In this document: positions 15,012 through 64,000 of the stretch, one piece after another
How positions within the stretch are numbered: position 1 is the stretch's first letter
Layout of the letters: each line of letters starts with the position of its first letter
Assembly (NCBI GenBank): GCA_963765625.1
Contig: CAVXXD010000012.1
Coordinates: 207,491 to 271,490, forward strand
DNA from: an uncultured bacterium
GTDB lineage: Bacteria > Actinomycetota > Geothermincolia > Geothermincolales > Geothermincolaceae
Reading direction: 5' to 3'
DNA length: 64,000 nucleotides
Translations under genes and position numbers: made by a program
Notes under the pieces: model-generated
Told to the model about the DNA's origin: nothing
Database searches by the model: none
Seen by the model: the letters and a program-made list of their open reading frames with translations, nothing else

Positions 15012-15013
15012 GC

Positions 15014-16950: not shown

Positions 16951-16973
16951 AGAGTTTACCGGGAGGCGTGGAA

Positions 16974-24748: not shown

Positions 24749-27153
24749 TCAGGGCGTGAAGCCTATCGAGTCATGTGCCCAGGTGCGGGCGGTATCGTAC
24801 ATGGCCCGCTCGCAGATGACCCCTCCGCCGTTGGAGGTGACCATGGTGGAGACGTTGTAGTCGGTGACGTAGTCGTTGGCTTGAAGGTGACGCGGGAGTT
24901 GGCGGGGATGGAGACATTCTGCAAGTCAGTTGGGGTCTGGACCCCTGCCCCGGTCATCAGCGTAAGGTCCACGGTGACCGCCGCGGCGTTGGGGTTCTGT
25001 ACCAGCACCCAGGTCTCGAAGTCGCCGGCGGTCGCCCCCTCGGCCAGGTACCAGGCGTAGGCCATGCTGGTCGCCCCGATGGAGTCGTGAGCCCAGGTCC
25101 TGCCGTTGCCGTACACGGCCCGCTCGCAGATGACCGGCATGTTCGCCGTGACCATGGTGGAGACGTTGTAGTCGGTGACGGAGTCGTTGGCCTTGAACGT
25201 CTTCCTGGAATTGGCCGGGATGGACACATTCTGCGGCCCGGGCACGGCCCCCGCCCCGGTCATGAAGTCGACGTCGACGGTGACCGCCATGGCGTTGGGG
25301 TTCTGAACCAGTATGTAGGTCTCGAAGTCGCCCGCCGTAGCGCCCTCGGCCAGGTACCAGCCGTAGGCCGGGTCGGTCACCCCGATGGAGTCGTGGGCCC
25401 AGGTGCGGGCGGTGTCGTACATGGCCCGCTCGCAGATGACCGGCATATCCGCCGTGACCATGGTGGAGACGTTGTAGTCGGTGACGGAGTCGTTGGCCTT
25501 GAACGTCTTCCTGGAATTGGCCGGGATGGACACGTCCTGCGGCCCGGGCACGGCCCCCGCCCCGGTCATGAAGTCGACATCGACGGTGACCGCCGTGGCG
25601 TTGGGATTCTGCACCAGCACCCAGGTCTCGAAGTCGCCGGCGGTGGCCCCTTCGGCCAGGTACCAGGTATCGGCCGGGTCGGTCACCCCGATGGAGTCGT
25701 GGGCCCAGGTCCTGCCGTTGCCGTACATAGCCCGCTCGCAGATGACCCCTCCGCCGGTGGGGGTGACCATGGTGGAGACGTTGTAGTCGGTGACGTACTC
25801 GTTGGCCTTGAAGGTGACGCGCGAATTGGCGGGGATGGAAGCCCCCTGCGGTCCGGCCTTCAAGCCGGCCGAGGTCATGAAGTCGACGTCGACGGTGACC
25901 GCCGTGGCATTGGGGTTCTGCACCAGTATGTAGGTCTCGAAGTCGCCGGCGGTCGCACCCTCGGCCAGGTACCAGGTGGGGGCGACGTAAGTCCGCCACA
26001 CGCCGCAGCCCTCCACGGTGGTATCACTGTAGCCTGTGCCGGCCCAGAGATAGCCCTCAAAGACGGCCATGGAGTGGATGGCCAGGTTGTCGTCCAGGTC
26101 GCCGAAGCCGTTGACGTTTCGCTGGTCCCAGGCGGTGCCGCTCCACGACCACACCTCGCAGCCGGTGTCGTCGTCGCTGAGGCCGCAGTAGAGTTCTCCC
26201 CCGTAGATGAGCATATTGCGCACGGCGTCCGGGGGGTCAACCAAAGCCATCCAGGGCGGGGTGAGATCGGTCCAGGAGGTGCCGCCGTCATACTTATAGA
26301 TGGTGCCGCCGTTGCTTGAGTTTCCGATTCCCATGTAGAGTTCGTTATTGTAGACGGCCAGGCTGCGGGCGTCTTCGTTGTTCACGTTGCCGAGACCGGC
26401 GTCAGCCACCTTGGTCCAGTCAGTTGGGTCCGGGCCGTCATGACACCATACCTGGCAGCCGGTGTCACTGTTATAGACTCCCGCGTAGAGCTGGTCTTCA
26501 AAGACCACCATTGCCCGGACTCCCCAGTTATCGATGTCCCCGAACGCGTCGGTATTGGCTTGGGCCCAGTCGGTGCCGTCGTAAGCCCAGACCTCCGCCC
26601 CGGTGACGTCGTTGCCTGCCCCTACCCAGAGCAGGCCGTTGAAGTCGAGCATATACGCAGCCGTGTCGGTGTTGACGTCCCCGAAGCCGTCGGTGTTGGC
26701 CTGGGCCCAATCGGTGCCGTCGTAAGCCCAGACCTCCGCCCCTGTGATGGAATTCATCGTACTCACATAAAGCAGGCCCTTGTAAACGGCCATATGATAA
26801 GCGATGCGGTTGTTGACGTCCCCGAAACCGTCGTCATTGACCTGGACCCAGTCTGCCGGGTCCGGACCGTCGTACCGCCAGACCTGGCAGCCAAGGACAT
26901 TATTGAACGTCCCGGCGTAGAGCTTGCCGTTGTATCCGGCCATTGAGAAGGTGCTTCTGTTGTCGGTGGGGACCGTGATGCCGAAGCCCGGTTCGTTCAC
27001 TTCCTCCCAGGTCAACGGCGCCGCCAGCGCCGCGCCCGTCAGGACGAACGCCGGCAGCAGCAGCGCGGCTGTCAGCAACAGGGCCGCCGCGCCTTTCAAG
27101 AGTCTTTTCCCCATACCTCTCACTCCTTTCATGCTTGCTTTACCTGACGACAC
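24749..27153 (-). CDS. Secreted protein: signal peptide, ~8 beta-propeller-like ~46-aa repeats, then 4 copies of the ~105-aa repeat; frameshift in the last repeat (~24865)
   Basis: Propeller repeats read LY.G..N..TGAEVWAYDGTDWAQANTDGFGD.N. Four copies of the module WYLAEGATAGDFETWVLVQNPNA...ANSR.TFKAND.VTDYNVSTMV....VICERAMY...RTWAHDSIG. After a 1-nt correction at ttcaag|gccaac the last repeat completes to stop 24749..24751. Confidence 0.75.
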
Positions 27154-50404: not shown

Positions 50405-53400
50405 ATGGACGTCTTCAAACACCCGGCCCGGCTGCTGGAAGCGGTCCACTGGTCCAGTGTGGGGGTGATCGCTTTTCTTCCCCTGTACCAGGGGGCGGAC
50501 ATCTCCATCCTGCTCTGGGCGATCATCATGGCATCCCTGGTACTCGTCGGGGCCGCGCTCTTCTTCTATCTCAAGAAGAAAAAGAAGCTCCCCCAGCTCG
50601 GTTACCCGGTCCTGCTCATCCTGGACTCGGCCCTGGTTTCGCTGCTCATCTACAACAGCGGCGGGCTGTCCAGCCCCCTCTACCCCATGCTGATCTTCTT
50701 CGTCATGCTCAACTCGCTGGCGCGGCGCTGGAACCTGGCCCTCGTCGGGACGTTCACCATCGCCTCCTTCTACCTGGCCGCGTGCCTGCTGGAGAACTCG
50801 AGTTCTCTGGGTTACGTCCTGATCGTGAGGGTGGGGGTGATGGTCGTTTCCGCCCTGGTGCTGACCTGGATGATGATCCTGGACACCGAGGCGCACGGGC
50901 GCGGCGCCCGCATGCAGACCCTCTACGAGATCAGCACCTCGCTCTCCCGCTCCCTCGACCTCGAGCTTACCCTGGCCAACATCCTGGAGTCCACGGATCG
51001 GGTGTTCAAGACGGACATCAGCTCCATCCGCCTGATGAACCTCAATGCCAACACCCTGGTGGTCAAGGTCTCCGGCGACCCCGAACACGACCCGGAGGAG
51101 GCGGTGGAGATCGAGCTGGGCGAGGGTTTCATCGGGTGGGTGGCCAAGGAGGGCCGGCCCATCATCGTCAACGACGTCCCCCACGACCCCATGTTCGCCA
51201 TCTTCCCCAAGGCCAAAAAAAAGGTAGCCTCGGTACTGGCCGCCCCCATCTACCTGGGCGACACCGTGGTGGGCGTGCTTTCCTGCGCCAGCTCCAAGCC
51301 GGTCGAGTTCACCGATGACGACCTGCAACTCCTGGTTACCATCTCCAACCTGGCCGCCACGGCCATCGAGCGGGCCGAGTTGTTCGAACGCATCAGTACC
51401 CGCGGCGAGGTCATCGTGGAGAATATCAACTCCAGCATCATCGTCACCGATCCCGAAGGGGGCATCTCCCTCATCAACCAGGCGGCCCTGGACCTGCTGG
51501 ACCTGGAGGAGGACGTCAGGGGCGCCAATGTCCTGGGTCTGCTCGAAGGGAGGATCCGCAATTTCGATATCTTCTGGAAACGGATCGAGGAGGAGTTCGC
51601 GGTCCTGGAAAAAGAAGAGGGCGCCCCGGAAGAAGGCATGAGGGCCGGCCTCTCTCAGGAACTCCGCACCATCGGGCCCAACGAGAGATACCTGCTGGTC
51701 AAGTCCTCGCCCATCCGCGCCAGTTACGACGCCCTTTCCGGCTTCGTCTTCATCCTGGACGACATCACCGAACGGGTCAAGGTGGACGAGATCCGCAACG
51801 AGCTGATGCTGATGATCGCCCGGCGCGTCGAGGAGTTCAGCGCCCTCTACGAGATGGGTTACTCACTGGCCGGCATGAGCGACACCCAGTACATGCTGGA
51901 CCTGCTCATCCGGCGGGCCGTGGAATTGCTGGACGCAAGCTCCGGCGCCCTGGCCCTCTACGACCAGGACCAGGACGTCTTCGTCTACAAGGCGGCGGCG
52001 GGGATGAGGGACGAACTTCCAGGCATCACTTTCAAGGCGGGGGAAGGGCCCTCCGGCGAGGTGGTGGAGCGCCGGGAGTCGCTCCTCCTGGAGAGGTCGG
52101 TGCCGGAAGGGTCGGCCCTGCTGGCCGAGGAGGTCCCCAACGAGATCACCGCGCTGCTGAGCCCCATCGTCTGGAGGGACCGCTCTACCGGCATCTTCGA
52201 GATATACCGGGACGCCGAAGAGCGCCCCTTTTCCGGGGACGACCTCTCGCTGCTGGCCCTCTTCACCAGCCAGACGGCTATCGCTCTCGAAAACGTCAAC
52301 CTCTACCAGATCATGTCGGAGGACAAGACCAGGATGGAGTCCATCCTCCTGTCGGTGGCCGACGGCGTGGTGGCCCTGAACAACGACGCCCAGGTGATCC
52401 TGGTCAACTCGGAGGCGGAAAAGATCCTCAACCTTCCACCCTTCCAGGATATACAGGGGAGCCACGTCAAGGAGGTCATCCGCAACCCGGACATCGCCAA
52501 CCTTCTTTTAAAGAGCCTCTACACCCAGGACGAGCTGGCCCTGGAGATAACCCAGAGCATTCCCCGCAAGCTGATCATGGAGGTGCAGACCTCGGTCATC
52601 GACGACGAGAAAAAGGAGCGGCGGGGCGTGGTGGCGGTGCTGCGGGACATCACCCGCATGCGCGAGCTGGAGCAGGCCAAGTCGGACTTCGTCTCCACCG
52701 TCTCCCACGAGCTGCGCACTCCCCTCACCTCCATTAAAGCCTACACCGCCACCCTGCTGCGGGAGGACGTGACCTTCGACACCTCCACCCAGAGGGAATT
52801 TCTCAGTATTATTGAGGAGGAAGCCGACCGCCTGACCCGCCTCATCGCCGACTTGCTGGACGTGTCCCGCATCGAATCCGGCAAGTTCGAGCTGAAGACG
52901 CGGGAGTTCGACTTCATCAAGCTGATCAACATAGTCCTGGACAAGTTGATGTCGCAGACGGACATCCACGAGGTGGACGTGATCACTCCTGGCAGCCTGA
53001 CCCCGCTGATGGCGGACCCCGACAAGATCGAGCAGGTGCTTATGAATCTGCTCGGCAACGCCGTGAAGTACTCGCCGCGTGGCGGCCGCATCGAGGTGGA
53101 GGTCAAGGAGTATTCCAACAAGATCGAATGTTCCGTCAAGGATTCGGGGGTGGGCATCCCCAAGGAATACCTGGTAAGGGTGTTCGAGAAGTTCAGCCGG
53201 GTGGACAACCGCGCCACCCGGGGCATCGGCGGTACCGGACTGGGGCTCTACATCACCAGGAGTATCGTAGAGGCGCACGGCGGGACCATCTGGGTGGAGA
53301 GCAGCCCCTCCAAAGGGAGCAAGTTCCATTTCACCCTGCCCCTGGACTCCACCTTGAAGAAGAGCCTGCCCAACCCGGACGGTACTTCGCGTGGTCAAAA

Positions 53401-53419
53401 TCGGGACAAGGGCATATAA
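50405..53419 (+). CDS. Multi-sensor histidine kinase: N-terminal polytopic membrane domain, GAF/PAS sensor domains, HisKA and HATPase_c
   Basis: 1004 aa. ~6 TM helices, then three GAF/PAS-like segments, H-box VSHELRTPLTSI, and N/G boxes in the C-terminus. Confidence 0.8.
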   Translation: MDVFKHPARLLEAVHWSSVGVIAFLPLYQGADISILLWAIIMASLVLVGAALFFYLKKKKKLPQLGYPVLLILDSALVSLLIYNSGGLSSPLYPMLIFFVMLNSLARRWNLALVGTFTIASFYLAACLLENSSSLGYVLIVRVGVMVVSALVLTWMMILDTEAHGRGARMQTLYEISTSLSRSLDLELTLANILESTDRVFKTDISSIRLMNLNANTLVVKVSGDPEHDPEEAVEIELGEGFIGWVAKEGRPIIVNDVPHDPMFAIFPKAKKKVASVLAAPIYLGDTVVGVLSCASSKPVEFTDDDLQLLVTISNLAATAIERAELFERISTRGEVIVENINSSIIVTDPEGGISLINQAALDLLDLEEDVRGANVLGLLEGRIRNFDIFWKRIEEEFAVLEKEEGAPEEGMRAGLSQELRTIGPNERYLLVKSSPIRASYDALSGFVFILDDITERVKVDEIRNELMLMIARRVEEFSALYEMGYSLAGMSDTQYMLDLLIRRAVELLDASSGALALYDQDQDVFVYKAAAGMRDELPGITFKAGEGPSGEVVERRESLLLERSVPEGSALLAEEVPNEITALLSPIVWRDRSTGIFEIYRDAEERPFSGDDLSLLALFTSQTAIALENVNLYQIMSEDKTRMESILLSVADGVVALNNDAQVILVNSEAEKILNLPPFQDIQGSHVKEVIRNPDIANLLLKSLYTQDELALEITQSIPRKLIMEVQTSVIDDEKKERRGVVAVLRDITRMRELEQAKSDFVSTVSHELRTPLTSIKAYTATLLREDVTFDTSTQREFLSIIEEEADRLTRLIADLLDVSRIESGKFELKTREFDFIKLINIVLDKLMSQTDIHEVDVITPGSLTPLMADPDKIEQVLMNLLGNAVKYSPRGGRIEVEVKEYSNKIECSVKDSGVGIPKEYLVRVFEKFSRVDNRATRGIGGTGLGLYITRSIVEAHGGTIWVESSPSKGSKFHFTLPLDSTLKKSLPNPDGTSRGQNRDKGI

Positions 53420-53458
53420 TTATTTTGACATCCCATAAATATTCAGGGAGGGCAAGGC

Positions 53459-54403
53459 TTGGAGGTTAGCGAGAGGGCCATCAAGATTCTTCTGGTCGAC
53501 GACGAGCGCAACATCCTGGACATCGTCCAGTTCAACCTGGAGGTTGAAGGCTTCGAGGTGACGACCGCGTCCGACGGCATGGAAGCCCTGCGCGTGGTGC
53601 ACGACGCCGCCCCCGACCTCATCCTCTGCGACATCATGATGCCGGAGGTGGACGGTCTCGAGGTCTGCCGCCGCCTCAAGGCGGACAGCCGCACCAACCA
53701 GATTCCCATCGTCATGCTCTCGGCCAAAGCGCAGTCCCAGGACAAGCTGGATTCCATCGCGGCGGGGGCGGACGACTTCGTCACCAAGCCCTTCGACTTC
53801 AACGATCTGGTGGCGCGGATCAAGGTCAACCTCATCCGGGCCAAGCAGAAGAAGGACGTCAGCCCGCTCACCGGTTTCCCCGGCTCCATCTCCATCGAGG
53901 CGGAGATCAAAACTCGCGTCAAGCGTGCCGAGGCCTTCGCCACTCTCTACGTGGACATGGACAACTTCAAGCCCTTTAACGAGGTCTACGGCTTCCCCCA
54001 GGGGGACAAGGCCATCAAGATGCTGGCCGACATCATCGACGACGCCGTGCGCAAGGCGGGGAACATGGAGGACTTCGTGGGCCACGGCGGCGGGGACGAT
54101 TTCATGATCATCTCCACCCCGGACCGGGCCAAGGCCATCGCCATCTTTCTCATCGAGAACTTCGACCGTCGGGTGACCGCCCTCTACCGCGAGGAGGACC
54201 TCCAGCGGGGCTACTTCATCCGCGTCGACCGGGCGGCCAAGGAGAGCTACATTCCCATCACCACCATCAGCATCGGCATAGCCAGCAACGAGCACCGGAG
54301 GATCACCACCCATTGGGAAGTGGGCGAGATCGCCAAGGAAACGTTGAACTACGCCAAATCCATACCGGGAAGCACTTTCTTTATGGACAGGAGGGTCAAG
54401 TAA
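53459..54403 (+). CDS. Response regulator receiver fused to a GGDEF-type domain with degenerate GGDDF motif
   Basis: TTG start after RBS GGGAGGG. REC domain (LLVDDE...DLILCDIMMP...D, K). GGDEF fold with LTGFPG, DMDNFKPFNE and GHGGGDDF. Confidence 0.7.
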   Translation: MEVSERAIKILLVDDERNILDIVQFNLEVEGFEVTTASDGMEALRVVHDAAPDLILCDIMMPEVDGLEVCRRLKADSRTNQIPIVMLSAKAQSQDKLDSIAAGADDFVTKPFDFNDLVARIKVNLIRAKQKKDVSPLTGFPGSISIEAEIKTRVKRAEAFATLYVDMDNFKPFNEVYGFPQGDKAIKMLADIIDDAVRKAGNMEDFVGHGGGDDFMIISTPDRAKAIAIFLIENFDRRVTALYREEDLQRGYFIRVDRAAKESYIPITTISIGIASNEHRRITTHWEVGEIAKETLNYAKSIPGSTFFMDRRVK

Positions 54404-54445
54404 CCGGGGAGATGGAAGGGTTTGCAGGAGGACCAAAGGGGAGAT

Positions 54446-55219
54446 ATGGAAGAGAAATATAAAGTGCTGGTGGTTGAGGACGACGAATCCATCTCCAACG
54501 TGGTGGAGTTGAACCTGCGCCTGGACGGCTACGAAGTGTTCCTGGCCGCCGACGGGGAGGAGGGGCTGGCCAGGGTGGAGGAAGTCGAGCCCGACCTGGT
54601 CATCCTGGACGTGATGATGCCCAAGGTGGATGGCTGGGAGGTGCTCATGCGCCTGCGCCAGCAGCCGGAGACCAAGGATATCCCGGTGATCATGCTCACT
54701 GCCATCGGCGACGAGCAGTCCAAGGTGATGGGCCTGCGGGGCGGCGCCGACGACTACGTTGCCAAGCCCTTCAGCCCACTGGAGCTGACCGCCCGGGTCA
54801 AGGTCATCCTGGACCGCGTGGGCAAGGCCCAGCGGATGGCGGAGCGCGTGGCGGAGCAGGGGGAGGCCGGCGAAGCCCCCATCAAGCTGGAGCAGATCCC
54901 CGTGCAGAAGGGCGACACCATCATCCTCGTCCCCAAGGAAGACATCTACTTCATCGACACCAAGTACGAGTACGCCAACATCCATACTTACTCCGATTCC
55001 TACCTCACCACCTACAGCCTGACCGAACTGGAGAAGTCACTCGACCGCAACATGTTCTTCCGGACCCACCGCAGCTTCATCGTCAACTTGCGCAAGGTCA
55101 AGGAGATCATCAAGATATCCCGCAACAGCCTCATCGTGGCCCTGACCGACGAAAAGGCCAGCCGGGTGCCGGTCAGCCGGCGGCAGGCCACCCTCTTAAA
55201 GGACGCCCTGGGCATCTAG
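54446..55219 (+). CDS. LytR/AlgR-family response regulator (REC + LytTR DNA-binding domain)
   Basis: REC domain, then the LytTR signature ...FFRTHRSFIVNL..V. Confidence 0.75.
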   Translation: MEEKYKVLVVEDDESISNVVELNLRLDGYEVFLAADGEEGLARVEEVEPDLVILDVMMPKVDGWEVLMRLRQQPETKDIPVIMLTAIGDEQSKVMGLRGGADDYVAKPFSPLELTARVKVILDRVGKAQRMAERVAEQGEAGEAPIKLEQIPVQKGDTIILVPKEDIYFIDTKYEYANIHTYSDSYLTTYSLTELEKSLDRNMFFRTHRSFIVNLRKVKEIIKISRNSLIVALTDEKASRVPVSRRQATLLKDALGI

Positions 55220-55303
55220 GCGAACGGCTTCCACCCCGTTTATATGCACCCATCATCGGGCATAATATATCTGGTAATATTCCTTTGAGATGGAGGTGGT
55301 TTC

Positions 55304-55513
55304 ATGCAACTCAGCGCGAGGAACGTCCTGAAGGGCAAGGTCAAGAGCATCGAGCATGGCGCGGTCAACTCCGAGGTCGTGGTGGAGCTTCCGGGTGGGG
55401 CGGAAGTGGTCTCGATAATCACCAAGACATCAGCCGAGGGACTGAAGCTGAAAAAGGGCAAGAAGGTCTACGCCGTGATCAAAGCCTCCAACGTCATGAT
55501 CGGTGTGGACTGA
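55304..55513 (+). CDS. Mop / TOBE-domain molybdate(tungstate)-binding protein
   Basis: 69 aa, MQLSARNVLKGKV..I......V.V..GG...V..IT..S...L.L..G..V...IKAS.V, a classic single TOBE domain. Confidence 0.7.
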   Translation: MQLSARNVLKGKVKSIEHGAVNSEVVVELPGGAEVVSIITKTSAEGLKLKKGKKVYAVIKASNVMIGVD

Positions 55514-55534
55514 GCGCCACCGGGCGAACTTTGC

Positions 55535-55563
55535 TTGACAAGCAATTGACCGCGTGCTAACTT
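55535..55563 (+). promoter_or_regulatory. Sigma70-like promoter (TTGACA, 17-nt spacer, TAACTT) driving the riboswitch-like leader
   Basis: Consensus -35 hexamer and a 4/6 -10 hexamer immediately 3' of the Mop stop codon. Confidence 0.45.
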
Positions 55564-55571
55564 AACTTCGC

Positions 55572-55672
55572 ATTGTAGGTTTTCCGAGCAGACCGGCCTA
55601 AAGCGTAAGCCAGGGCTGCCTGCCGATAGGGTACAACGGGAAACGGTTGTGCCTCCCGCATTTGGAAAGGGA
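55572..55672 (+). promoter_or_regulatory. Candidate molybdenum/tungsten-cofactor (Moco/Wco) riboswitch aptamer, copy 1
   Basis: Leader shares blocks with the 63347..63447 copy: AGGUUUUCCGAGCAG, CCUAA, GCCGAUAGGGUA, GGAAACGG, UGCCUCCCG, UUUGGAAAGG. The CCGAG, GCCUCC and GGAAAGG blocks match my recollection of the Moco-motif consensus. Downstream genes are Mo/W-related. Confidence 0.55.
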
Positions 55673-55695
55673 AACCGGGCCGGCGGACTTTACGT

Positions 55696-55730
55696 GGGCA
55701 TCCTTTCCAGGAGGGATGCCCTCTTGTTTT
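55696..55730 (+). terminator. Intrinsic terminator forming the expression platform of the leader
   Basis: GGGCATCC-tttccaggag-GGATGCCC followed by TCTTGTTTT. The 5' arm CCTTTCCA is complementary to the aptamer 3' end UGGAAAGG, an anti-terminator/terminator switch. Confidence 0.55.
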
Positions 55731-55827
55731 AACGCCGCGTGCCGTCCTTTCCTATGCGGGTAGGGCGGTATTTTTGTTGGGAGAGCCGGCAAGCAAGGCG
55801 GTAAAGAGGATTCTTGAGGAGGAGAAG

Positions 55828-58331
55828 ATGCGAAAGTTCCTAGTGTTAATGACAGTGGCGGCGTTATGTGCCGCACCGGGATTGGGCCTCTTCGGCGCCG
55901 CGGCTTCCCCCCGGCTAGCGCCGGATTCCAGGCGGACGCCCTGTCCGCGGCATCACCGAACTACCGGGTCTTCAGTGAGACCGACCTGAAGTCCATCAAG
56001 AAGATAACCCACAATCTCGATGCCAGCATCACCGAAGGACTGGCGGGCGGTCATTACACCTGTCAGAAGAATTCCGACCCCTTCACCTATTTCGAGCAGG
56101 ACTGGAAGGGAGTAGACCTCTCCTACCTGCTGAACCAGGAAGTGGGCATCAAAACAGGCACCACCGGTATCAAGATCATTGCCGCCGACGGATACGCGGT
56201 GACCCTGACCCTTGCGGACATCGAGGGTTACAATGGGCTGCCGGCCCTGCTCGGCTACCTGCGCGGTGACTCCAGTGACAACAATCCTCCCAACGAAGAA
56301 GGAACCATGGATGGAACCGGGACCTTCCCCTCCGTGGACCCGGTTGATACGAACGTCGAGATCGACGCGGAAGAAGGCCCCTTCCGGCTGGTCCTTCCCC
56401 AGAGCACCATCGGCCCGGATCCCCGCGACGTCGCCTACAGTCCGGTGGGAAGTGGTACCGCCAACTGGAACAAGGCGGTCATGCAGGTGCGCGCCGTCGA
56501 GGTACAGCCGGTATCCCCGGGCATCCCGGCCATCGATTACGAGGCCATTCCCAGCAACCAGGTTGTCGTTTACGGCAACATCGAGAACCGCCATACCTTC
56601 ACCGTCGACCAGCTCAAATCGATCAACCCCGTCAGTGGCACGTATACCTTCAGGAAGTCCTTCGGTGACCCGCCCGAATACAGCGAGGAGAATCACGAAT
56701 GTGCAGGGGTCACTCTGTCCTACCTGCTGGACGATGTCCTCGGGCTGCAGGACGCGGCTGAAAACGTAACGACCATATGCTCGGACGGCTATGGTGTCGG
56801 AAAGGTCATCTCCCTGGAAGACATGAGGCAGGTCGGCTTGAACGGCATGCAGTTCATGCTCTGCCTGAACCTGGACGGGGCGGACCTGGGTCCCGAGCCT
56901 GATGACAAAGGCCCAGTTTACCTGGTCAAGCCGCTGATGACCGATGACCCCCTCGAGACCAACAGTAGCAAATGGATGAAGAACATCAGGTCGATCGTGG
57001 TGAACACCTCATCCGACCCGGGGCCCGATTGGGCCAGGATCCCAACTGACCGCGTCATCGTCAGCGGCCTCTCCAACGCGGGCAACATCCCCAACGAGTG
57101 GTTCCTGCCCGAGGGGTGCACCGGCTTCGGCTTCGAGGAATGGATCCTCATCGAGAACCCCAACCCCTGGCCCACCGACGTCATCGTCGATTACATGATC
57201 GAGGGTGAGGCCATGCAGACCAGGACTTACGACGACGTTGCGGCCGAATCGCGCTTCTCCATCAATGTGGCAGCCGAGATTGGCACGGACAAGAACGTCA
57301 GCGCCAGGGTGGAAGGTTACCACGGCGACTCCATCGTCGTGGAGCGCGCCATGTACTGGGGCGACCGCGACGGCGGTCATTGCTCCGGCGGCATCCAGCG
57401 GGCTCTCAACACCTGGTACTTGGCCGAGGGGTGCACAGCCGATATCTTCGAGACCTGGGTGCTGGTTCAGAACCCGGGCGACACCGACGTCATCGTGGAC
57501 TTCACTCTTATGACTGAAGCCGGTGAGCAGAATCCTGAGGGCCTGCAGGACCAGACCATAGCCGCTAATTCTCGCCGCACCTTCAACCTGGGAGACTTCG
57601 TCCAGTCATATGACGTCTCCACCAGGGTTGTCGCCTCCGGTGACGTCATCGTGGAACGTGCCGTTTACTGGAACGACCGCGACGGCGGCCACTGCGCCGG
57701 CGGCGTTGCCGGCCCCGGTAACGAATGGTATCTGGCCGAGGGGTGTACTAATTCTCCCTTTGAGACCTGGGTGCTGGTGCAGAACCCGACCGCGGCTGCC
57801 GTCAACATCGACATGGACCTGATCACCGACACCGGCGTGGTGCAGGGCCCGCAGGAAGCTATCGCCCCCAACTCGCGCAAGTCCTATAACCTGGTCGACT
57901 ACACCGCGAGTTATGACGTGTCGACAAGGGTCACGGCGGACGGTAGCGGGATCATCGCCGAGCGCGCCGTCTATTGGAACGACCGCGACGGCGGCTCCTG
58001 CGAGAGCGCCAGCGACCACGGCAAATTCAAGGCCTACCTGGCCGAGGGCGCCACGGCCGGCGGCTTCGAGACCTGGGTGCTCTTCCAGAACCCCGGGGCC
58101 GTCGATGCCACCATCAATGTGACCTATCTCACCGATTCCGGCGTGGTCGTCAAGGAACCCTTCGTAGTGGCCGCCGGGACGCGTAAATCAGTCAACGTCA
58201 TCGAAGACGTCGGAGAAAAATACGATGTCTCCACCGTCGTCACGGCCAGCGCGCCGGTGGTGGTGGAGCGTGCCGTCTACTGGGCCGAGCGCATCGAGGG
58301 AAGCTGCGCCAAGGGGCTTTCCGCCTGGTAG
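55828..58331 (+). CDS. Secreted protein with two sulfite-oxidase-fold (molybdopterin-oxidoreductase-like) domains followed by 5 copies of the ~105-aa repeat; frameshift in the signal-peptide region (~55905, C5 run)
   Basis: Signal peptide MRKFLVLMTVAALCAAPGLGLFGAAAS is in ORF 55774.. and the body in ORF 55866..58331. SUOX-like blocks GGHYTCQKNSDPFTYFEQDWKGVDLSYLL ... DGY.V.L.L and FRLVLPQ. Repeats carry WYLAEGCT..FETWVLVQNP ... VVERAVYWNDRDGG. Confidence 0.65.
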
Positions 58332-58478
58332 CGCTGGAAATGACCGCCTGACAAGTGGATTTTCCTCCCACTTGTTCGAAGGGGGCTCTTCGGGGTCCCC
58401 TTCACCTATTTTTATAACTCCCGCGTGTTGGGATAATAAGATAGATAAATAGCAAGCATCGGATAAGAGGAGGCAGGC

Positions 58479-59984
58479 TTGACGGCGAAATCCCGCATAT
58501 TGTTGGTCGTATCCATTATCCTCCTGCTGGGAGCGGCCTTCGCCCTGGTCTTCCGCTATGTCGAAGTGGAGCACAACAGGGTGCTTTCATACGACGACGT
58601 CACCGGGATGCCGGCGGTAAGCGCGAGCTACCACAGCATCAACAACTGGGCCACGGTGGAGGACACCGATTTCACCGGCGTGCCCCTTTACCAGGTCCTC
58701 GAGAAGGTCGGCGTAACCGATGGGGTGGTTCAGATACAGGTGATCGCGCCCGACGGTTATTTCTGGCCGGCCGTGGACGATACCCTGACTCTGGACGAGT
58801 TGCGCACCCCCAACCAGCAAGGGCTCTATGCCCTGCTGGCATGGGAGATGAACGGAGAGACGCTTCAGCCGGAACCGGACGGCTCCGGGCCCCTGCGGCT
58901 GGTCTTGCCCCAGTATGGCGAGGAGGAAGTCAACAAGCCCTCCTGGGTGTCCAACGTCCGCCTGCTCCTGGTCGGGCCACTCGAAGAGGGTTACCAGGCG
59001 CCCGATGCAGGGGAGGTGCCGGTAGAGGAGGTCCGGATAGGAGGGAATGTCCCGCCCGGGTACCCATACCCGCTCTGGCCGGTGGTCCTGATGGGGATCA
59101 TCGGCCTATTGCTGCTGGGGGAAGTCGCGGCAGACAAGCTCAGAATCCGTCAGATGGGGCCCCAGAAGGTGGCTGTTCTGATCCTTGTGGCCACCGTCTT
59201 TTCCGTATCGTTGGCGATGATGGAGGCGGATCGGGCTGTCGCGGAGAGTCCGCAGGCGGTCTTTTCTCTGGAAGAACTGCGGTCCATGCCCGCCTCCGGC
59301 GGACATTACACCTTCCTGAAATCACAGGAGCCCTTCACCTATTACGAAGAGGATTACGAAGGGGTCTCACTCTCTTACCTGCTCCAGGGAGCCACGCAGC
59401 TGGAGCCCGGCGCCGACGGGGTGGTAGTGAGGTGCACGGACGGCTACAAGGTCAGCCTGAGCCTCTCCCAGGCCGTGCAGGTCTACCCCGGAGGCCTCCA
59501 GGCTATAATCGCTTATTCCAAAAGGGGAGAGTCTTTCAAAGGGGATGAAGGGCCACTCCGCCTCATCGTGCCCCAGGCCAGCCCCGGCGACAAGGCCGGC
59601 GGTGGCGACGCCAACACCCCTTACTGCGCCCGCATGGTCTATGCGGTGGAGGTAACGCCGCTGCCGGCCGGCCTGACACCGCCTTCCGCGGCCAGTGTGC
59701 CGGCAGGGTCACTGGCCGTGTACGGGGCGGTCACCGTGCCGGCGGCACCTGAACAGCCGGCGGTCACACCACCGCTGGAACCGGTAGAGGAAACCACGAC
59801 GCAAGCGAATGTGGAGACCCCCGCCAATAACATCGCCGTGACCCCGGCAGCGACGGAGTTTACCCTCAACGGACTGCCCCCAAGCCTCTCGCGCCTGGTG
59901 CTTGGCGTGACCCTGGCGGGAGGGCCCTACCCGCTTACCATGCAGCTCTGGATAGCCTCCGAAAGTGAACGTGGTCCCTCATGA
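58479..59984 (+). CDS. Membrane-anchored protein with two sulfite-oxidase-fold domains separated by two TM helices
   Basis: Domain 1 has GVPLYQVLE ... LAWEMNGETL ... GPLRLVLPQ ... KPSWVSNVRLL, close to the SUOX/YedY core motif LAYEMNGEPL..GFPLRLVVPG. Domain 2 has GGHYTFLKSQEPFTYYEEDYEGVSLSYLL ... GPLRLIVPQ. The putative Mo-ligand Cys is absent from domain 2. Confidence 0.6.
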   Translation: MTAKSRILLVVSIILLLGAAFALVFRYVEVEHNRVLSYDDVTGMPAVSASYHSINNWATVEDTDFTGVPLYQVLEKVGVTDGVVQIQVIAPDGYFWPAVDDTLTLDELRTPNQQGLYALLAWEMNGETLQPEPDGSGPLRLVLPQYGEEEVNKPSWVSNVRLLLVGPLEEGYQAPDAGEVPVEEVRIGGNVPPGYPYPLWPVVLMGIIGLLLLGEVAADKLRIRQMGPQKVAVLILVATVFSVSLAMMEADRAVAESPQAVFSLEELRSMPASGGHYTFLKSQEPFTYYEEDYEGVSLSYLLQGATQLEPGADGVVVRCTDGYKVSLSLSQAVQVYPGGLQAIIAYSKRGESFKGDEGPLRLIVPQASPGDKAGGGDANTPYCARMVYAVEVTPLPAGLTPPSAASVPAGSLAVYGAVTVPAAPEQPAVTPPLEPVEETTTQANVETPANNIAVTPAATEFTLNGLPPSLSRLVLGVTLAGGPYPLTMQLWIASESERGPS

Positions 59985-60515
59985 GCCTGCGCGGGTGGCT
60001 TACGGCCACGGCCCTGGTCTGCCTTATCGCCGGTTGTGCCTTCGCCGGGGCCGGCTGCGGGGATGAGCAGCAGCCGTCACGCTTCTTGAAGAGCGAGGAA
60101 CGCCTGGAAGGGATGTACGAAGCCTGCAAGACTATCGCCATCAGCGACCCGGCGGGAGAGCGCCCTCCCATCCTCGCGGACGAGCTGGCGGGGTATCCCC
60201 GCGTCGATGTGACCACGGAACTGGTGCGGTCCAACGGCATGCGCCTGCCGGGCACCTGGAGCGGCGCGTCGATCTCGGAGGTCCTGGCGAAGCACGGTGT
60301 GGAAGGACCCTTCACCGAGCTGCGCATCGTTGCCTGGGACGAATACGTGGCCAAGGTACCCTTACGACATCGCCATGCGCCCCGACACCATTCTCGCCTA
60401 CGAGCAGGAAGGAGAACCCCTCCCGCGGGAGGACGGCCCGGTGCGGCTGGTGGTGGGGAGCGAGGACGGCTTCTTCTGGATCCGCATGATCGTCCGGCTG
60501 GAAGTGGTGCGTTGA
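59981..60515 (+). CDS. Lipoprotein with a single sulfite-oxidase-fold domain, frameshift near 60360
   Basis: Lipobox LIAGCAF. RLPGTWSGASISEVLAKHGV is in ORF 59981.., then ILAYEQEGEPLPREDGPVRLVVGSEDGFFWIRMIVRLEV in ORF 60297..60515. Confidence 0.55.
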
Positions 60516-60526
60516 AGCGCCTGTCC

Positions 60527-61363
60527 ATGCGCGCCGCCCTGATCTTCGTCCTGTCGGCCTGCCTGACCCTCGCCGTCCTGTCATCGGGGTGCGGAGGTGG
60601 CATCCCCGAGTCGGAGCGGAGCGAACTGATCCTGGCCACTACCACCAGCATGCTCGACTCCGGTCTGCTCGAGGAGTTGGTCGTCCGCTTCGAAGAAGAG
60701 TATCCCTACCGCGTGAAGGCCATCGCCGTGGGGAGCGGCGCGGCGCTGCTGATGGCCAGGCAGGGTGAAGCGGACGTGACCGTCACTCATGAGCCCAATG
60801 CGGAGAAGGAACTGATGGAAGCAGGGTTCGGGGAGAGCTGGCAGGAAGTGATGTACAACGACTTCATCATCGTCGGGCCCCCGGAAGACCCTGCCGGGAT
60901 CGCGGGCATGACCGAGGCCGCGGAGGCCTTCCGGCGGATCGCTGAAAGTGAAAGCTCCTTCTTTTCCCGCGGTGACGCTTCCGGGACCAACGCCATGGAA
61001 CTGGCCACCTGGAGCCGGGCGGGGATAAACCCGGATGGTGACTGGTATCACGAGAGCGGCCAGGGCATGGGGTACAGCCTCCGGATGGCGGATGACGGGG
61101 GAGCCTACACCCTCTCGGACCGGGCCACCTTCATAGTGCTGGAAAAAGCCCTGCGCATGGAAGTTATGGTGGAAGGCGACCCCGACCTCATCAACCATTA
61201 TTCGGCTATAGTGGTGAACCCCGAGAAGTTCTCCGGGCTGAACCACCAGGGGGCCGTGGACTTCGCCAATTTTCTTTTAGGGGACGAGACCCAGGAGTTC
61301 ATTGCCGGATTCGGCTGGGACCGCTATCACCAGCACCTCTTTTACCCCGTCAGCCCGGAATAA
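60527..61363 (+). CDS. tupA: Tungstate ABC-transporter substrate-binding lipoprotein
   Basis: Lipobox LSSGCGG. The TupA anion-binding signature ATTTSMLDSGL is present, with the remainder PBP-type-2-like. No tupB/tupC is adjacent. Confidence 0.7.
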   Translation: MRAALIFVLSACLTLAVLSSGCGGGIPESERSELILATTTSMLDSGLLEELVVRFEEEYPYRVKAIAVGSGAALLMARQGEADVTVTHEPNAEKELMEAGFGESWQEVMYNDFIIVGPPEDPAGIAGMTEAAEAFRRIAESESSFFSRGDASGTNAMELATWSRAGINPDGDWYHESGQGMGYSLRMADDGGAYTLSDRATFIVLEKALRMEVMVEGDPDLINHYSAIVVNPEKFSGLNHQGAVDFANFLLGDETQEFIAGFGWDRYHQHLFYPVSPE

Positions 61364-61388
61364 TCACGGGAACAACCATTAACGGGCC

Positions 61389-61736
61389 TTACTCGATGAG
61401 CAGCAGGTCTCCCGGCTCCGTCGAGGTCTCGCTCAGCCTGCCGGCTGGTAGCTCCAGGGCCTTCCGGCCCTTCAGGCAAACAGGGCTGATCCGCCCCGGG
61501 CGGAGAGACGGCGCCGTCTTGAGCACTCTTCCCTCACGATCCAGGAAGGCCACGTCGATGGTGTAGCGCATGCCGAAGGTGTGGACGTTGCGGCAGGGTA
61601 CCAGGAGCATGCCGTCGCGTCCCTGCCAGCCTTCGCTTGAGAGCAGGCCGCGCGATCTTGCGCGGGCGGTGTCCGCCACTTCAACGACCTCGCCCAGCAG
61701 GGTATTCTTGCTCCGGTTGCTTATTCTTACGAACAT
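61389..61736 (-). CDS. DUF192 (COG1430) family protein
   Basis: C-terminal 115 aa of ORF 61389..62102 from MFVRISNRS. GMLLVPC..VHTFGMRY.IDVAFLD is the DUF192 core. The upstream extension is a shadow of fdhD. Confidence 0.55.
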   Translation of the reverse strand: MFVRISNRSKNTLLGEVVEVADTARARSRGLLSSEGWQGRDGMLLVPCRNVHTFGMRYTIDVAFLDREGRVLKTAPSLRPGRISPVCLKGRKALELPAGRLSETSTEPGDLLLIE

Positions 61737-61793
61737 GTTGAAAGAATAGACCGGCGCCAGGGGGCGCGCAAGCGTTATGCTATTCTTTATGAA

Positions 61794-62660
61794 GTGCAAG
61801 GGAACGGGACATTGTCGGAGGTGGGCATGTCTACGGTGGATTGGGAGATAAGCAGGATTTACGCGGACGGCGGGCGCGAGACGCTGCTCGACCGGGTGGT
61901 TGTGGAGCAACCCCTGGAGATCAGCGTCAACGGCATGCCCGTGGTGGCCCTGATGCGCCTGCCCGGCAACGACAAGGAACTGGCGGTGGGCTTCTGCATC
62001 ACCGAGAAGATCATCGTCTCCGCCGCCGACATCAAGCTGCTCAGGCACTGCGGTGAACTGGAGAAGAAGGTTGCCGCAGGCGAAAGTGGGGAAGAGGCGC
62101 AATCTCCCTACGACCGGTCCAACCTGGTCGAGCTGGAGGTGGAGAGGGCCTGCGACACCGGCCGGTTCGCCTCCACTTACGTGGTCCGCACCGGCTGTGG
62201 TGGCGCCGACCTCTCAGCCATGCTGGAGGATTATGCCGGCGTCGTCACCTCGGACCTGCGGCTCAAAGGCGAGGCTGTACACGGCCTGGGGGGCAAGCTC
62301 ACCGCTTGCCAGGAGGTCTTCCGGGGAACGGGCGGGACACACGGGGCGGCCGTCTTCACGGCCGCGGGGGAACTGGTCGTGGCCCGGGAAGACGTCGGCC
62401 GCCACAACGCCCTGGACAAGGTGGTGGGGCACTGCGCCATGGCCGGCATCCCCCTCGAGGACAAGGTCCTCTTCATCTCCGGGCGCATCAGTTACGAGAT
62501 GGCCTTGAAAGCCATCCGCTCCGGTTCCCCGGTCCTGGCCTCACTGGCCGCCCCCACCAGCCTGGGGCTGCGTATCGCCGAGGAGGCCGGGCTCACGGTC
62601 ATCGGCTTCTCGGACGGCCGCCGTTTCAATGTCTACACCCATCCCGGCAGGGTGGAGTAA
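61794..62660 (+). CDS. fdhD: Formate dehydrogenase accessory sulfurtransferase FdhD
   Basis: 288 aa. TGCGGADL catalytic-Cys loop and C-terminal GRHNALDKVVGHCAMAGIPLEDKVLFISGRISYEM. Confidence 0.75.
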   Translation: MQGNGTLSEVGMSTVDWEISRIYADGGRETLLDRVVVEQPLEISVNGMPVVALMRLPGNDKELAVGFCITEKIIVSAADIKLLRHCGELEKKVAAGESGEEAQSPYDRSNLVELEVERACDTGRFASTYVVRTGCGGADLSAMLEDYAGVVTSDLRLKGEAVHGLGGKLTACQEVFRGTGGTHGAAVFTAAGELVVAREDVGRHNALDKVVGHCAMAGIPLEDKVLFISGRISYEMALKAIRSGSPVLASLAAPTSLGLRIAEEAGLTVIGFSDGRRFNVYTHPGRVE

Positions 62661-63288
62661 CAGGCATGAAAGACAGGCCGGCCGGAGTTTCCTGCGCCAT
62701 CCTGGCGGGAGGAGAGGGCAGCCGCCTGCGGGCCGAGAAGGCCCTGCTGACCATCGGCGACCAGTTTCTGGCGGAGACCCTCATCGCCAACCTGCGCCCC
62801 CTCTTCGACGACATCATGCTGGTGGCCAGGAGTGAGCATTCCCCCTTGAGGGCCTTGAGCGGCCCCGGGGTGCGGCTGGTGACGGACATAATGTACCGCA
62901 AGGGTCCCCTGGGGGGCATCCACAGCGCCCTTCACTACTCCGAGAAGCCCGTTCTGCTTCGTCATCGCCTGCGACATGCCCTTTCCCGCCCTCACTCTGG
63001 TTGAGCGGATGGTGCAGCTGGCCGAAGGGCATGAGGCCGTGGTGCCCCGCCGCGGTGAATATATCGAGCCGCTCTTCGCCGTCTATGCGCGGAGCCTGGA
63101 GGAGCGGGCCCGGGTTTTCCTGGAGGAGGGGAAGAAGAAGATCCACGACTTCCTGGACGAGGTGGACGTCCTCTACCTGGAATGAGACGGAGATCGAACT
63201 GCTTGACCCGCAAGGCTTCTCCTTCTTCAACATCAACACCCCCGAGGACCTGGCCAGGGCCAGGGAGATATACCTGAACAAGGAATAA
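62657..63288 (+). CDS. mobA: Molybdenum cofactor guanylyltransferase MobA, interrupted by 2 frameshifts (~62960, ~63185)
   Basis: SCAILAGGEGSRL..EKALL N-terminal motif in ORF 62657... Continues in ORF 62976..63185 (VVPRRGEYIEPLFAVY) and ORF 63001..63288. Confidence 0.6.
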
Positions 63289-63304
63289 CCGCCACGTCCT
63301 CAGC

Positions 63305-63333
63305 TTGACACGCTTCTTGTCCGTCATGATAAT
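63305..63333 (+). promoter_or_regulatory. Sigma70-like promoter (TTGACA, 17-nt spacer, GATAAT) driving the second riboswitch-like leader
   Basis: Same -35 hexamer and spacing as the promoter at 55535..55563. Confidence 0.45.
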
Positions 63334-63346
63334 TTTCCTCATGTAT

Positions 63347-63447
63347 TGCAGGTTTTCCGAGCAGCCCCACCTAAGGCCGCGAGGCTAGGGAGAGGTTGCC
63401 GATAGGGTAAGGTTGGAAACGGCCCTGCCTCCCGTGTTTGGAAAGGA
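63347..63447 (+). promoter_or_regulatory. Candidate Moco/Wco riboswitch aptamer, copy 2
   Basis: Same conserved blocks as copy 1, with different intervening sequence. Downstream CUGCUCGG at 63565..63572 can pair with the aptamer 5' block CCGAGCAG. The start codon of a SUOX-domain gene follows at 63617. Confidence 0.5.
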
Positions 63448-63616
63448 AGACCTAAAGCGCTCGCCGGTGAAGGGTATCTCCTCCCTGGAGAAACCTCGAT
63501 CTGCAGGGCTTGGTTTTCTTGCAGACATGCGGCGGCCCCCTTTTCCAACTTCCGAATAACGGCTCTGCTCGGAGCGGATTTCGTCTACTGATGGAAAGCG
63601 AGGAGGTAAGGGGTAT

Positions 63617-64000
63617 GAGAAAGGCACTGACGTTCCTGCTGCTGCTGGTACTGTGCCTGGGCACCATGGTCACCATGGCGGTGACGCCGGTCTCGGGGCC
63701 CGGCGCGGCCGTGGCGGCCACCGGCGAGTCACAGCCGCACTTTTTCCTATAACTACTTGAAGTCGCTACCCGAGACCCACGGGCACTACGGCTTGCAGAA
63801 CAGCGGCACCACCTACTACGAGCAGGACTGGTTGGGAGTCGACCTGCAGTACCTCCTGGATACGGAGGTTGGCCTCGCCGCGGGCACGACCGGCGTCAAG
63901 GTGCAGGCCTACGATTTCGCGAACGGTACGAGCATGACCCTGGACCAGTGCAACGGCAACAGCAGCGACAAGGGCCTGAAGACCCTTCTTGCTTACAAGA
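63617..64000 (+). CDS. Secreted sulfite-oxidase-fold domain protein, 5' part (runs off the window); frameshift near 63750
   Basis: Signal peptide MRKALTFLLLLVLCLGTMV, then in the next frame HGHYGLQNSGTTYYEQDWLGVDLQYLLDTEVGLAAGTTGVKVQAYD, homologous to the domains in 55828..61363. Confidence 0.55.

Follow-up and report, generated by a model that had tools for sequence, protein, structure and literature searches.

A predicted P3-less Moco/Tuco riboswitch with a long expression platform upstream of a SUOX-like gene in an uncultured actinomycetotal bacterium

INTRODUCTION

The molybdenum-cofactor (Moco) RNA motif was described in 2008: in Escherichia coli the ribosome-binding site (RBS) of moaA lies inside helix P1, other representatives carry terminators, and the occurrence of both platform types in one organism was already noted then (PMC2408646). 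RNAs without P3 account for 58 of 176 representatives and correlate with tungsten-cofactor (Tuco) metabolism; the ligand is unstable, and even the E. coli evidence is genetic (PMC2408646). In Eubacterium limosum, a single genome holds five P3-less Tuco riboswitches with three kinds of platform: an RBS sequestor with complementary regions (antisequestors) overlapping the 5′ aptamer helix, direct masking of the start site, and terminators (PMC11725836). Here we analyse two leaders of this family, copy 1 and copy 2, in a 64,000-nucleotide (nt) stretch of DNA (hereafter the window, whose numbering is used throughout; contig CAVXXD010000012.1 of assembly GCA_963765625.1, positions 207,491 to 271,490, forward strand) from an uncultured bacterium of the Geothermincolaceae (Actinomycetota). 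Copy 2, which precedes a gene for a secreted SUOX-like protein, is our main subject.

A first-pass annotation of the window had described copy 2 as a riboswitch-like leader with the promoter architecture and aptamer blocks of copy 1, no obvious terminator, and a long-range pairing between the aptamer 5′ block and a downstream segment as its presumed switch. We favour, with about as much doubt as confidence, a P3-less Moco/Tuco leader under translational OFF control as the best overall explanation.

RESULTS

Copy 2 and the Moco/Tuco riboswitch family

An Rfam scan of the whole window gave two matches above threshold, both to RF01055 (copy 1 at 55570–55688, copy 2 at 63343–63464, plus strand). 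The copy-2 match (78.3 bits, E = 2.8e-17, for a gathering score of 36 bits) covers the full model, positions 1–135, and a permissive search of 63200–63700, up to E = 1, returned no family besides RF01055. The model positions of P3 are deleted in both copies, the P2–P4 junction reading GCC-G-A-U-AGGG, and P3 is also missing from the RF01055 aptamers of all related loci. The multistem junction of copy 2 consists of P1, P2 with its CCUAAG receptor bulge, P4 with a GAAA tetraloop, and P5; the core blocks CCGAGC, CCUAAG, AGGG, GGAAAC, CCUCCCG and UUGGAAAGG are all found in it and are kept in the three orthologous leaders described below. Its position is that of a 5′ leader before molybdenum/tungsten (Mo/W) cofactor genes, to judge from the promoter, the SUOX-like gene and its neighbours. 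With a covariance-model score above the gathering score over the full model, this anatomy and this position, the copy-2 leader is almost certainly a genuine Moco/Tuco riboswitch, and the aptamer blocks recognized in the first pass were rightly read. The missing P3 hairpin is the mark of the Tuco subtype, whose selectivity for the tungsten over the molybdenum cofactor is a correlation only (PMC2408646; PMC11725836); by analogy, the ligand of copy 2 may be Tuco rather than Moco.

Compared with the moaA riboswitch of E. coli (PMC2408646), copy 2 has the same P1, P2 with tetraloop receptor, P4 with GAAA loop and P5, the same CCGAGC, AGGG, CCUCCC and UUGGAAAGG blocks, and a similar place in a 5′ leader beside Mo/W cofactor genes. 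It differs by the missing P3, by a Shine-Dalgarno (SD) region located 150 nt downstream, whereas the moaA RBS is in the P1 3′ strand, and by the gene it would regulate, which codes for a secreted SUOX-like protein and not for cofactor biosynthesis or a transporter. The Tuco riboswitches of E. limosum (PMC11725836) are likewise P3-less, occur in several copies per genome with different platforms, and contain platform segments proposed to pair with the 5′ helix, as was suggested for copy 2; tungstate-transporter-like genes nearby may be a further common trait. Unlike them, copy 2 belongs to an uncultured member of the Actinomycetota and not to a Firmicute, has a much longer spacer and another gene family behind it, and no clear sequestor/antisequestor pair is demonstrable in it.

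Orthologous long leaders

A protein search with the 129-amino-acid (aa) fragment of the copy-2 gene found no match, and an FdhD-anchored search of GTDB representative contigs gave relatives of at most 41% identity plus one partial match of 51%, none of them syntenic. Orthologues were reached via the copy-1 protein, whose homologues (at most 57% identity) come from uncultured Actinomycetota including Candidatus Solincola, and then via the protein P0052. Three orthologous long leaders, L029 (GCA_040757835.1), L030 and L031, were obtained and aligned with the window; they are close relatives, and only P0063 and P0064 are full-length orthologous proteins. Each has a P3-less RF01055 aptamer (73–76 bits) about 125–150 nt before the start codon. 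Aligned across the four leaders, the aptamer hardly varies: the 5′ block GGUUUUCCGAGCAG is identical in 4/4 leaders, (U)CCGAGCAG (63356–63364 in the window) in copy 1 as well, and all P1 pairs are retained in the four, but as invariant pairs. The platform has diverged to about 50–60% identity while the aptamer core remained invariant, which argues for selection on the aptamer.

This comparison bears on the view that copy 2 is an aptamer remnant, whose ancestral terminator has decayed and whose 150-nt spacer no longer couples ligand to expression. The two-hairpin, terminator-type platform retained by the TIG-domain paralogue of L050 would fit such a history, as would the failure to find any significant switch element in the long leaders. 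It is nevertheless very improbable, given aptamers of 73–78 bits in 4/4 long leaders, the invariant core beside so divergent a platform, and the conservation, within that platform, of two short blocks (Boxes A and B, Table 1) and of the SD 9-mer.

Scanning metagenomes with the pattern TTCCGAGCAGNNNNNCCTAAGGC yielded 15 loci, about nine of them aptamers; no further long leader was found among these 15 loci, the platform being of the terminator type wherever downstream sequence was present. Two other candidates were discarded. The leader of the TIG-domain paralogue P0068 (L050) is terminator-type, with the two-hairpin platform; the riboswitch after mobA in L047 belongs to another sub-lineage and has a terminator and a different downstream gene. 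L047 (JGI contig Ga0598253_0001613, positions 1–18004) is itself syntenic with window positions 50405–63300, at identities of 82% for a histidine kinase, 93% for a LytTR regulator, 80% for FdhD and 77% for a TupA-like protein; behind its mobA riboswitch come a 253-aa protein and an ABC transporter of the tungstate/molybdate type, the latter with one more riboswitch. A conserved upstream open reading frame in the leader was also ruled out, by indels of lengths not divisible by three, one of them a 26-nt deletion in L030.

A platform unlike the copy-1 terminator

Upstream of the aptamer the two copies are built alike. The copy-2 promoter (TTGACA-17-GATAAT) ends 10 nt before the aptamer match, and copy 1, read directly in the sequence, has TTGACA-17-TAACTT at an equal distance from its own aptamer, in line with the common architecture seen in the first pass; the orthologous leaders, too, keep a −35 box, TTGACT, and a comparable −10. 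Transcription of copy 2 would then start at about 63340–63343. Copy 2 also shares with copy 1 and the orthologues of copy 1 nearly identical P1 strands (GGUUUUCC, GGAA[G/A]ACC) and 5′ blocks, a similar promoter layout and a paralogous gene behind them. In contrast, copy 1 has an 11-pair terminator and a second hairpin, whereas copy 2 and its orthologues have neither.

The copy-1 terminator begins within 8 nt of the aptamer (stem 55696–55721, 6 of the 11 pairs G-C, T-run to 55731), and its 5′ arm is complementary to the P1 3′ strand (−14.3 kcal/mol). In six terminator-type leaders of the same lineage the P1 3′ strand complements a terminator arm 18–57 nt after P1, with −14.3 to −15.5 kcal/mol, as is classical for antiterminators. 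In the long leaders the best complements are scattered in position and reach −9.0 to −12.9 kcal/mol (shuffle fractions 0.06–0.67). A strong hairpin with a T-run 10–30 nt after P1, usually followed by a second hairpin, is the rule in the sister leaders (copy 1 and its orthologues, L050 and most metagenome matches). The two successive hairpins of copy 1 (55696–55731 and about 55741–55779) and of most terminator-type relatives have CCUUUCC-containing 5′ arms and T-rich tails; the pair looks like two terminators in tandem, or like one terminator joined by another regulatory hairpin, and in copy 1 the scan flags only the first.

Copy 2 has no intrinsic-terminator platform in which the P1 3′ strand would serve as antiterminator. 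The 134 nt between aptamer and SD, in a platform of about 150 nt, contain no strong hairpin followed by a T-run. The sole terminator-like site found by the scan is a weak hairpin (63564–63578, 6 pairs, 3 G-C) about 100 nt past P1 with the tail TTTCGTCT, and its 5′ arm is the very segment CTGCTCGG to which the long-range pairing was attributed. The orthologues have no counterpart of this hairpin at its position: L029 has a different weak hairpin with a U-rich tail directly after P1 (9863–9881), and the scan found no terminator-like hairpin in L030 and L031. We conclude with considerable confidence that the copy-2 leader is without an intrinsic terminator. The absence of an obvious terminator noted earlier thus holds for any strong or conserved one, but not for the weak hairpin. 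The contrast with the copy-1 platform, also noted then, is repeated in three other metagenome-derived genomes.

Elongation could still be controlled without a canonical terminator, either by Rho acting on the C-rich stretch at about 63536–63560, whether this is the main readout or follows from a block of translation, or by weak, genome-specific hairpin terminators. Rho-dependent control is established for riboswitches of other classes (Mg2+ mgtA, FMN ribB). The leader is long, with 150 nt from aptamer to SD and no classical switch sequence, a C-rich, G-poor zone lies in the corresponding part of the alignment in 4/4 leaders, and weak hairpins with U-rich tails occur in the window (63564–63588) and in L029. 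However, the excess of C over G is modest (about 16:8 per 40 nt in the window, about 16–18 to 8–10 across the four leaders) and the zone is short beside typical Rho-binding (rut) regions. The weak hairpins are at non-homologous positions, with none in L030 or L031, and the sister leaders of the same organisms keep canonical T-run terminators, so that the loss of the T-run argues against hairpin termination. We hold elongation control, by either route, to be improbable.

At least four uncultured Actinomycetota genomes share the combination of a terminator-type leader and a long terminator-less leader before paralogous genes, and the long platform is for this reason probably functional. Two different platforms before paralogous genes had been called a neat evolutionary pair; the two platforms are there, but the phenomenon was already known (PMC2408646; PMC11725836). 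On related Actinomycetota contigs, P3-less RF01055 aptamers number two or three within 10 kb, often as divergent back-to-back pairs. L029 combines one terminator-type copy, one in which the P1 3′ strand doubles as the SD (AAGGAGG 16903–16909, AUG 16914), and the long leader. In this lineage the riboswitch has thus multiplied, to two or three copies in 10 kb and three platform kinds.

The proposed long-range helix is not conserved

The pairing proposed in the first-pass annotation joins CTGCTCGG (63565–63572) to the aptamer 5′ block CCGAGCAG (63357–63364). The two are indeed exact complements, and complementarity even reaches 9 nt (TCCGAGCAG / CTGCTCGGA; CTGCTCGG(A) 63565–63573 versus (T)CCGAGCAG 63356–63364), with two further G-C pairs across a 2-nt bulge and a duplex energy of −18.5 kcal/mol. 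The distance from the end of the segment to the start codon, given as about 45 nt, is 43 nt, with the ATG at 63615 and not at 63616. CTGCTCGG has nine occurrences on the plus strand of the window. An exact complement of at least 9 nt between aptamer and platform arose in 8% of dinucleotide-shuffled platforms, a complement of at least 8 nt to the 17-nt 5′ block in 6% of shuffles, and a duplex energy of −17.0 kcal/mol was reached by 6%: the complementarity is not clearly more than chance.

Folding of the RNA 63340–63633 gave the helix a pair probability of about 0.016 at equilibrium. When the helix was forced, the fold reached −110.7 kcal/mol, 3.3 above the minimum free energy (MFE), while the aptamer-enforced fold reached about −110; the forced state is predicted to be thermodynamically admissible, not favoured. 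The unconstrained fold places the segment in the local hairpin 63564–63578.

The orthologous leaders were decisive here, as the first-pass annotation had itself named leaders lacking the segment as grounds for giving up its model. At the position of window CUGCUCGG they read CGCUGGGA, CGCUGGAU and UACCGUGU, so the downstream segment is missing in all three while the 5′ block is invariant. Helix pairs kept are 9/9 in the window, 7/9 in L029 (with a central G-G mismatch) and 4/9 in both L030 and L031; 64% of alignment cells pair, compared with 53–58% when the 3′ partner is slid by 1–2 columns, and there is no covariation. Being non-conserved, matched by chance in 6–8% of shuffles and formed with a probability of about 1.6%, the helix CUGCUCGG:CCGAGCAG did not hold up as a long-range switch pairing, and is at most a lineage-specific version of such a pairing, not a conserved switch helix.

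About 10 nt upstream of this position, the three orthologues have the element GGAGGACC / GGAAAACC / GGGAAACC (GGRRRACC), which can pair with the P1 5′ strand GGUUUUCC in 24/24 cells, the differences being A/G opposite U. This points weakly to a recurrent downstream complement of the aptamer 5′ strand, in a register that differs in the window: weakly, because the orthologues are closely related, one of the two strands does not vary and the shuffle fractions of the single sequences are 0.05–0.40.

Could the helix nevertheless act in this one genome? The ligand-free CUGCUCGGA (63565–63573) would pair with UCCGAGCAG (63356–63364) and dismantle P1 and P2, so that the SD is exposed, or the hairpin 63564–63578 (then UUUCGUCU) is kept from terminating; ligand would shut expression off. 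Nine contiguous Watson-Crick pairs plus two, at −18.5 kcal/mol, speak for it, as does a helix-forced fold which is as good as the aptamer-enforced one and has an open SD. The logic is self-consistent, since the segment is the 5′ arm of the only terminator-like hairpin of the leader; published antisequestors also use the 5′ aptamer helix (PMC11725836). L029 retains 7/9 pairs, the 24/24 complement of the same 5′ strand in the orthologues is compatible with turnover of a functional element, and the shuffle fractions for the 5′ block lean low (0.06, 0.05, 0.17 and 0.40). Against this, the helix is unconserved although its 5′ strand is invariant and exceeds the slid controls by little (64% versus 53–58%), such a match occurs in 6–8% of shuffles, and the pair probability is about 1.6%. 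Moreover, the 5′ block is more than 200 nt upstream of the segment and becomes part of the folded aptamer well before transcription reaches the latter, the hairpin is weak and without orthologous counterpart, and the predicted SD opening partly reflects a pseudoknot-free folding model. We consider this version unlikely.

The copy-1 leader (55570–55845) also contains a downstream complement of its own 5′ block (−18.7 kcal/mol, 2% of shuffles), located beyond the terminators.

Possible control of translation initiation

Since the SD block is invariant and a conserved terminator is missing, the step that the copy-2 leader most likely controls is the initiation of translation, a judgement which modelling leaves evenly poised between belief and doubt. 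The OFF polarity and the identity of the exchanging helices are more tentative, any particular helix being a doubtful choice. In the scheme that we favour, transcription would proceed from the promoter at 63305–63333, starting at about 63340, through the aptamer, the platform of about 150 nt and the SD to the ATG at 63615. When the cofactor is bound, P1 (63351–58 with 63445–52) would be locked and the SD would be masked by pyrimidine-rich platform segments (63537–42 and 63548–53); when it is missing, the freed P1 strands would re-pair with distal platform elements and loosen the mask. That the alternative pairing involves the P1 5′ strand is, in our estimate, somewhat unlikely.

The SD 9-mer CGAGGAGGU is invariant in the alignment while its flanks vary. 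Its predicted partners in the window are in the C/U-rich tract: CCCCUU with AAGGGG (63608–63613), and ACUUCC (63548–63553) with GGAGGU (63602–63607), the former strand of the second pair having pair probabilities of 0.5–0.8 in ensemble folding. This exact partner is not kept in the orthologues; a YCUUCC-like motif in the C-rich, G-poor stretch (63536–63553) is conserved across the long platforms. The unpaired probability of the SD is 0.22–0.35 in the four long leaders, compared with 0.20–0.96 in seven terminator-type leaders, and 0.07–0.37 in every modelled state. When the distal element was forced to pair with the 5′ strand, predicted SD accessibility rose in three of the four leaders, from 0.17 to 0.34, from 0.13 to 0.52 and from 0.21 to 0.34, and stayed unchanged in L031 (0.34 to 0.36). 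In these models, the raised accessibility fits an OFF switch of the sequestor/antisequestor kind.

Several observations weigh against translational OFF control. When the platform was tested for complements of the 5′ block, the P1 3′ strand and the SD, the shuffle fractions were 0.05–0.92, none significant, and a combined 'switching sequence' score gave 0.17–0.75, none above chance. Predicted SD accessibility hardly differs between aptamer-enforced and P1-forbidden ensembles. The SD partner in MFE predictions is different in each orthologue, and the ranges of SD accessibility of the two leader types overlap. More generally, MFE and ensemble folds of the four leaders (free, aptamer-enforced, P1-5′-strand-blocked, P1-penalised) revealed no consistent ligand-dependent change at the SD and no common architecture. 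The leaders are only four, three of them close relatives, with two-sided changes confined to short local hairpins. The Box A, Box B and SD helices described below have no two-sided compensatory change, and their constrained-ensemble energies are inconsistent in sign and size between sequences. Finally, single bases of the leader may be wrong, given the homopolymer indels of this assembly. As to the hallmarks of a sequestor/antisequestor platform, the SD is mostly paired in the predictions but with a varying partner, antisequestor candidates are not above chance, and the conserved complement of the 5′ strand is present in three orthologues only.

Two conserved blocks of the platform offer further pairings. 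Box A, just 3′ of P1, can pair with Box B in 25/26 cells of the four leaders; its other candidate partner, CGAG in the SD region, matches it in 93% of cells. For Box B, RNAalifold gives the region 63566–63572 (UGCUCG in the window) as an alternative partner. The RNAalifold consensus was derived from the same four sequences on which these helices were tested.

These pairings lend themselves to the opposite polarity. In an ON switch, the ligand-free SD CGAGGAGGU would pair either with the end of P1 and Box A (ACCU...CUCG, 63450–63463) or with the core GCCUCCCG (63426–63433), and folding of the aptamer on ligand would withdraw these partners and free the SD. RNAalifold indeed pairs the post-P1 segment with the SD, in 93% of cells and with one-sided C/U changes that preserve pairing, and this segment is the best SD partner in the whole platform of L029 and L031. 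Similarly, the strongest conserved complement of the SD 9-mer in 4/4 leaders is GCCUCCCG (−11.7 to −11.8 kcal/mol), with a conserved CG before GGAGG extending the complementarity. But CCUCC is found in the core throughout the family and can pair with any SD; the post-P1 pairing is poor in L030 (−6.3 kcal/mol), and the post-P1:SD helix is disfavoured by 4–13 kcal/mol in the energy model. The RNAalifold helix coexists with P1, which predicts OFF, the paralogous copy 1 is built as an OFF switch, and the consensus was tested on the four sequences it came from. An ON switch thus appears highly unlikely, even more so than the genome-specific helix or elongation control, and translational OFF control remains our preferred reading.

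Coordinates of the copy-2 leader and related features

Table 1. Features of the two leaders and of the gene behind copy 2 in the window, and RF01055 aptamers of related loci (positions in the last five rows refer to those loci)
Feature	Position	Strand	Remark
Sigma-70-like promoter	63305..63333	+	−35 TTGACA 63305–63310, 17-nt spacer, −10 GATAAT 63328–63333; 11/12 matches
Moco/Tuco riboswitch aptamer (RF01055), P3-less subtype	63343..63464	+	78.3 bits; gathering score 36
P1 5′ strand, GGUUUUCC	63351..63358	+	pairs with GGAAGACC at 63445–63452
5′ block, (U)CCGAGCAG	63356..63364	+	end of P1, P1/P2 junction and start of P2
P1 3′ strand, GGAAGACC	63445..63452	+	conserved core UUGGAAAGG (63438–63446) just before
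Box A, GCUCGCCGG	63459..63467	+	conserved block just 3′ of P1; GCUYRCYGG in orthologues
Box B, GCGGCGG	63529..63535	+	GYGGCGAG in orthologues
C/U-rich tract, CCCCCUUUUCCAACUUCC	63536..63553	+	predicted partner of SD/spacer; starts C-rich, G-poor zone
Degenerate counterpart GAAUAACG of the orthologues' GGRRRACC element	63554..63561	+	5/8 pairs with P1 5′ strand
CUGCUCGGA, 9-nt complement of 63356–63364	63565..63573	+	exact; not conserved; within chance
Weak local hairpin UCUGCU-CGG-AGCGGA, then UUUCGUCUAC	63564..63588	+	stem 63564–63578; 6 pairs, 3 G-C, −7.2 kcal/mol
SD region, CGAGGAGGU (DNA CGAGGAGGT)	63599..63607	+	9-mer invariant in 4/4 leaders
Start codon (63615–63617) and Sec-type signal-peptide part	63615..63752	+	frame ends TAA 63750–63752
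Same gene continued, +1 frame, SUOX-like N-terminal domain	63745..63999	+	cut by window end
Paralogous copy 1: P3-less RF01055 aptamer 55570–55688, then intrinsic terminator	55570..55731	+	67.9 bits
RF01055 aptamers in L029	9732–9852; 16530–16648 (−); 16806–16924		
RF01055 aptamers in L030	6282–6402; 12822–12939 (−); 13100–13219		
RF01055 aptamers in L031	256–376; 7788–7906 (−); 8075–8193		
RF01055 aptamers in L047	5296–5414; 13388–13506; 15242–15365		
RF01055 aptamers in L048 and L049	~9131–9864		

The gene behind copy 2 and its neighbourhood

The gene downstream of copy 2 is read in two frames: the signal peptide MRKALTFLLLLVLCLGTMVTMAV is in the first, which stops right after a T5 run (63741–63745), and the next frame continues with SYNYLKSLPETHGHYGLQNSGTTYYEQDWLGVDLQYLL. 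When one T was removed, residues 1–128 of the fused 128-aa sequence aligned with residues 1–129 of P0063 at 54% identity. Since the fused sequence aligns end to end with metagenome proteins that are uninterrupted, the break is attributed to a homopolymer indel. Other frame breaks occur in the window: at a C6 run in the copy-1 gene (55907–55912), which likewise has signal peptide and mature protein in different frames, in mobA, which is spread over three frames (62666–63279), and in a 177-aa Oxidored_molyb gene split over two frames near 60354–60361. The orthologues are free of such breaks. Together they suggest an indel-prone (long-read) assembly rather than programmed frameshifting; alternatively, the genes are decaying.

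The two riboswitch copies had been placed before paralogous SUOX-domain genes, and the proteins agree with this: the copy-2 domain aligns with the N-terminal domain of the copy-1 protein (gene 55866–58331) at 38% identity over 121 aa (E = 3e-16), and relatives of the copy-1 protein match Pfam Oxidored_molyb (SUOX fold) weakly. Among relatives of the copy-2 fragment P0052 ranks first, with 64% identity in the mature part; this 909-aa protein carries TIG and InlB-repeat domains and comes from a metagenome-assembled genome of the Actinomycetota. The surroundings are given over to Mo/W metabolism, the neighbours being MobA, FdhD, a TupA-like binding protein, a Mop/TOBE protein and further Oxidored_molyb proteins. 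The TupA-like protein (60530–61363) matches NCBIfam NF041772 with 179 bits (E = 9e-53), far below the equivalog cut-off of 400. This periplasmic binding protein sits in the copy-1 operon, and its specificity bears on Tuco sensing by the P3-less copies.

The SUOX-like proteins (63615–63720; 55828–55900; P0052, P0063, P0064, P0068, P0006 and P0002) have Sec-type signal peptides starting MRK..., with no twin-arginine motif. Exported Moco enzymes normally take the twin-arginine translocation (Tat) pathway. In view of this usual route, the missing motif means that the SUOX-like domains may not carry the cofactor in the usual way. Sec-exported SUOX-like proteins beside TupA-like binding proteins would make an unusual regulon for a cofactor-sensing RNA. 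One could go further and imagine a distinct type of platform, in which an element located 40–60 nt before the start codon (GGRRRACC in the three orthologues, CUGCUCGGA in the window) would invade the P1 5′ strand across about 200 nt, with a register turning over in evolution, and would control translation, possibly also Rho access, of Sec-exported SUOX-like proteins unable to receive their cofactor in the cytoplasm. We regard this as speculative and improbable; if true, it would amount to a distinct platform and a riboswitch-governed system for extracellular Mo/W acquisition or processing in deep-branching Actinomycetota.

The 69-aa Mop/TOBE protein (55304–55513) has an identical sequence on short Logan contigs of ERR12035938 and ERR15459710, which places this bacterium or a near relative in both runs. 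The C-terminal DUF5719 repeats of the copy-1 family also match 1865–3115 (+) and 24773–26007 (−) at 40–47% identity, which points to further paralogues in the window.

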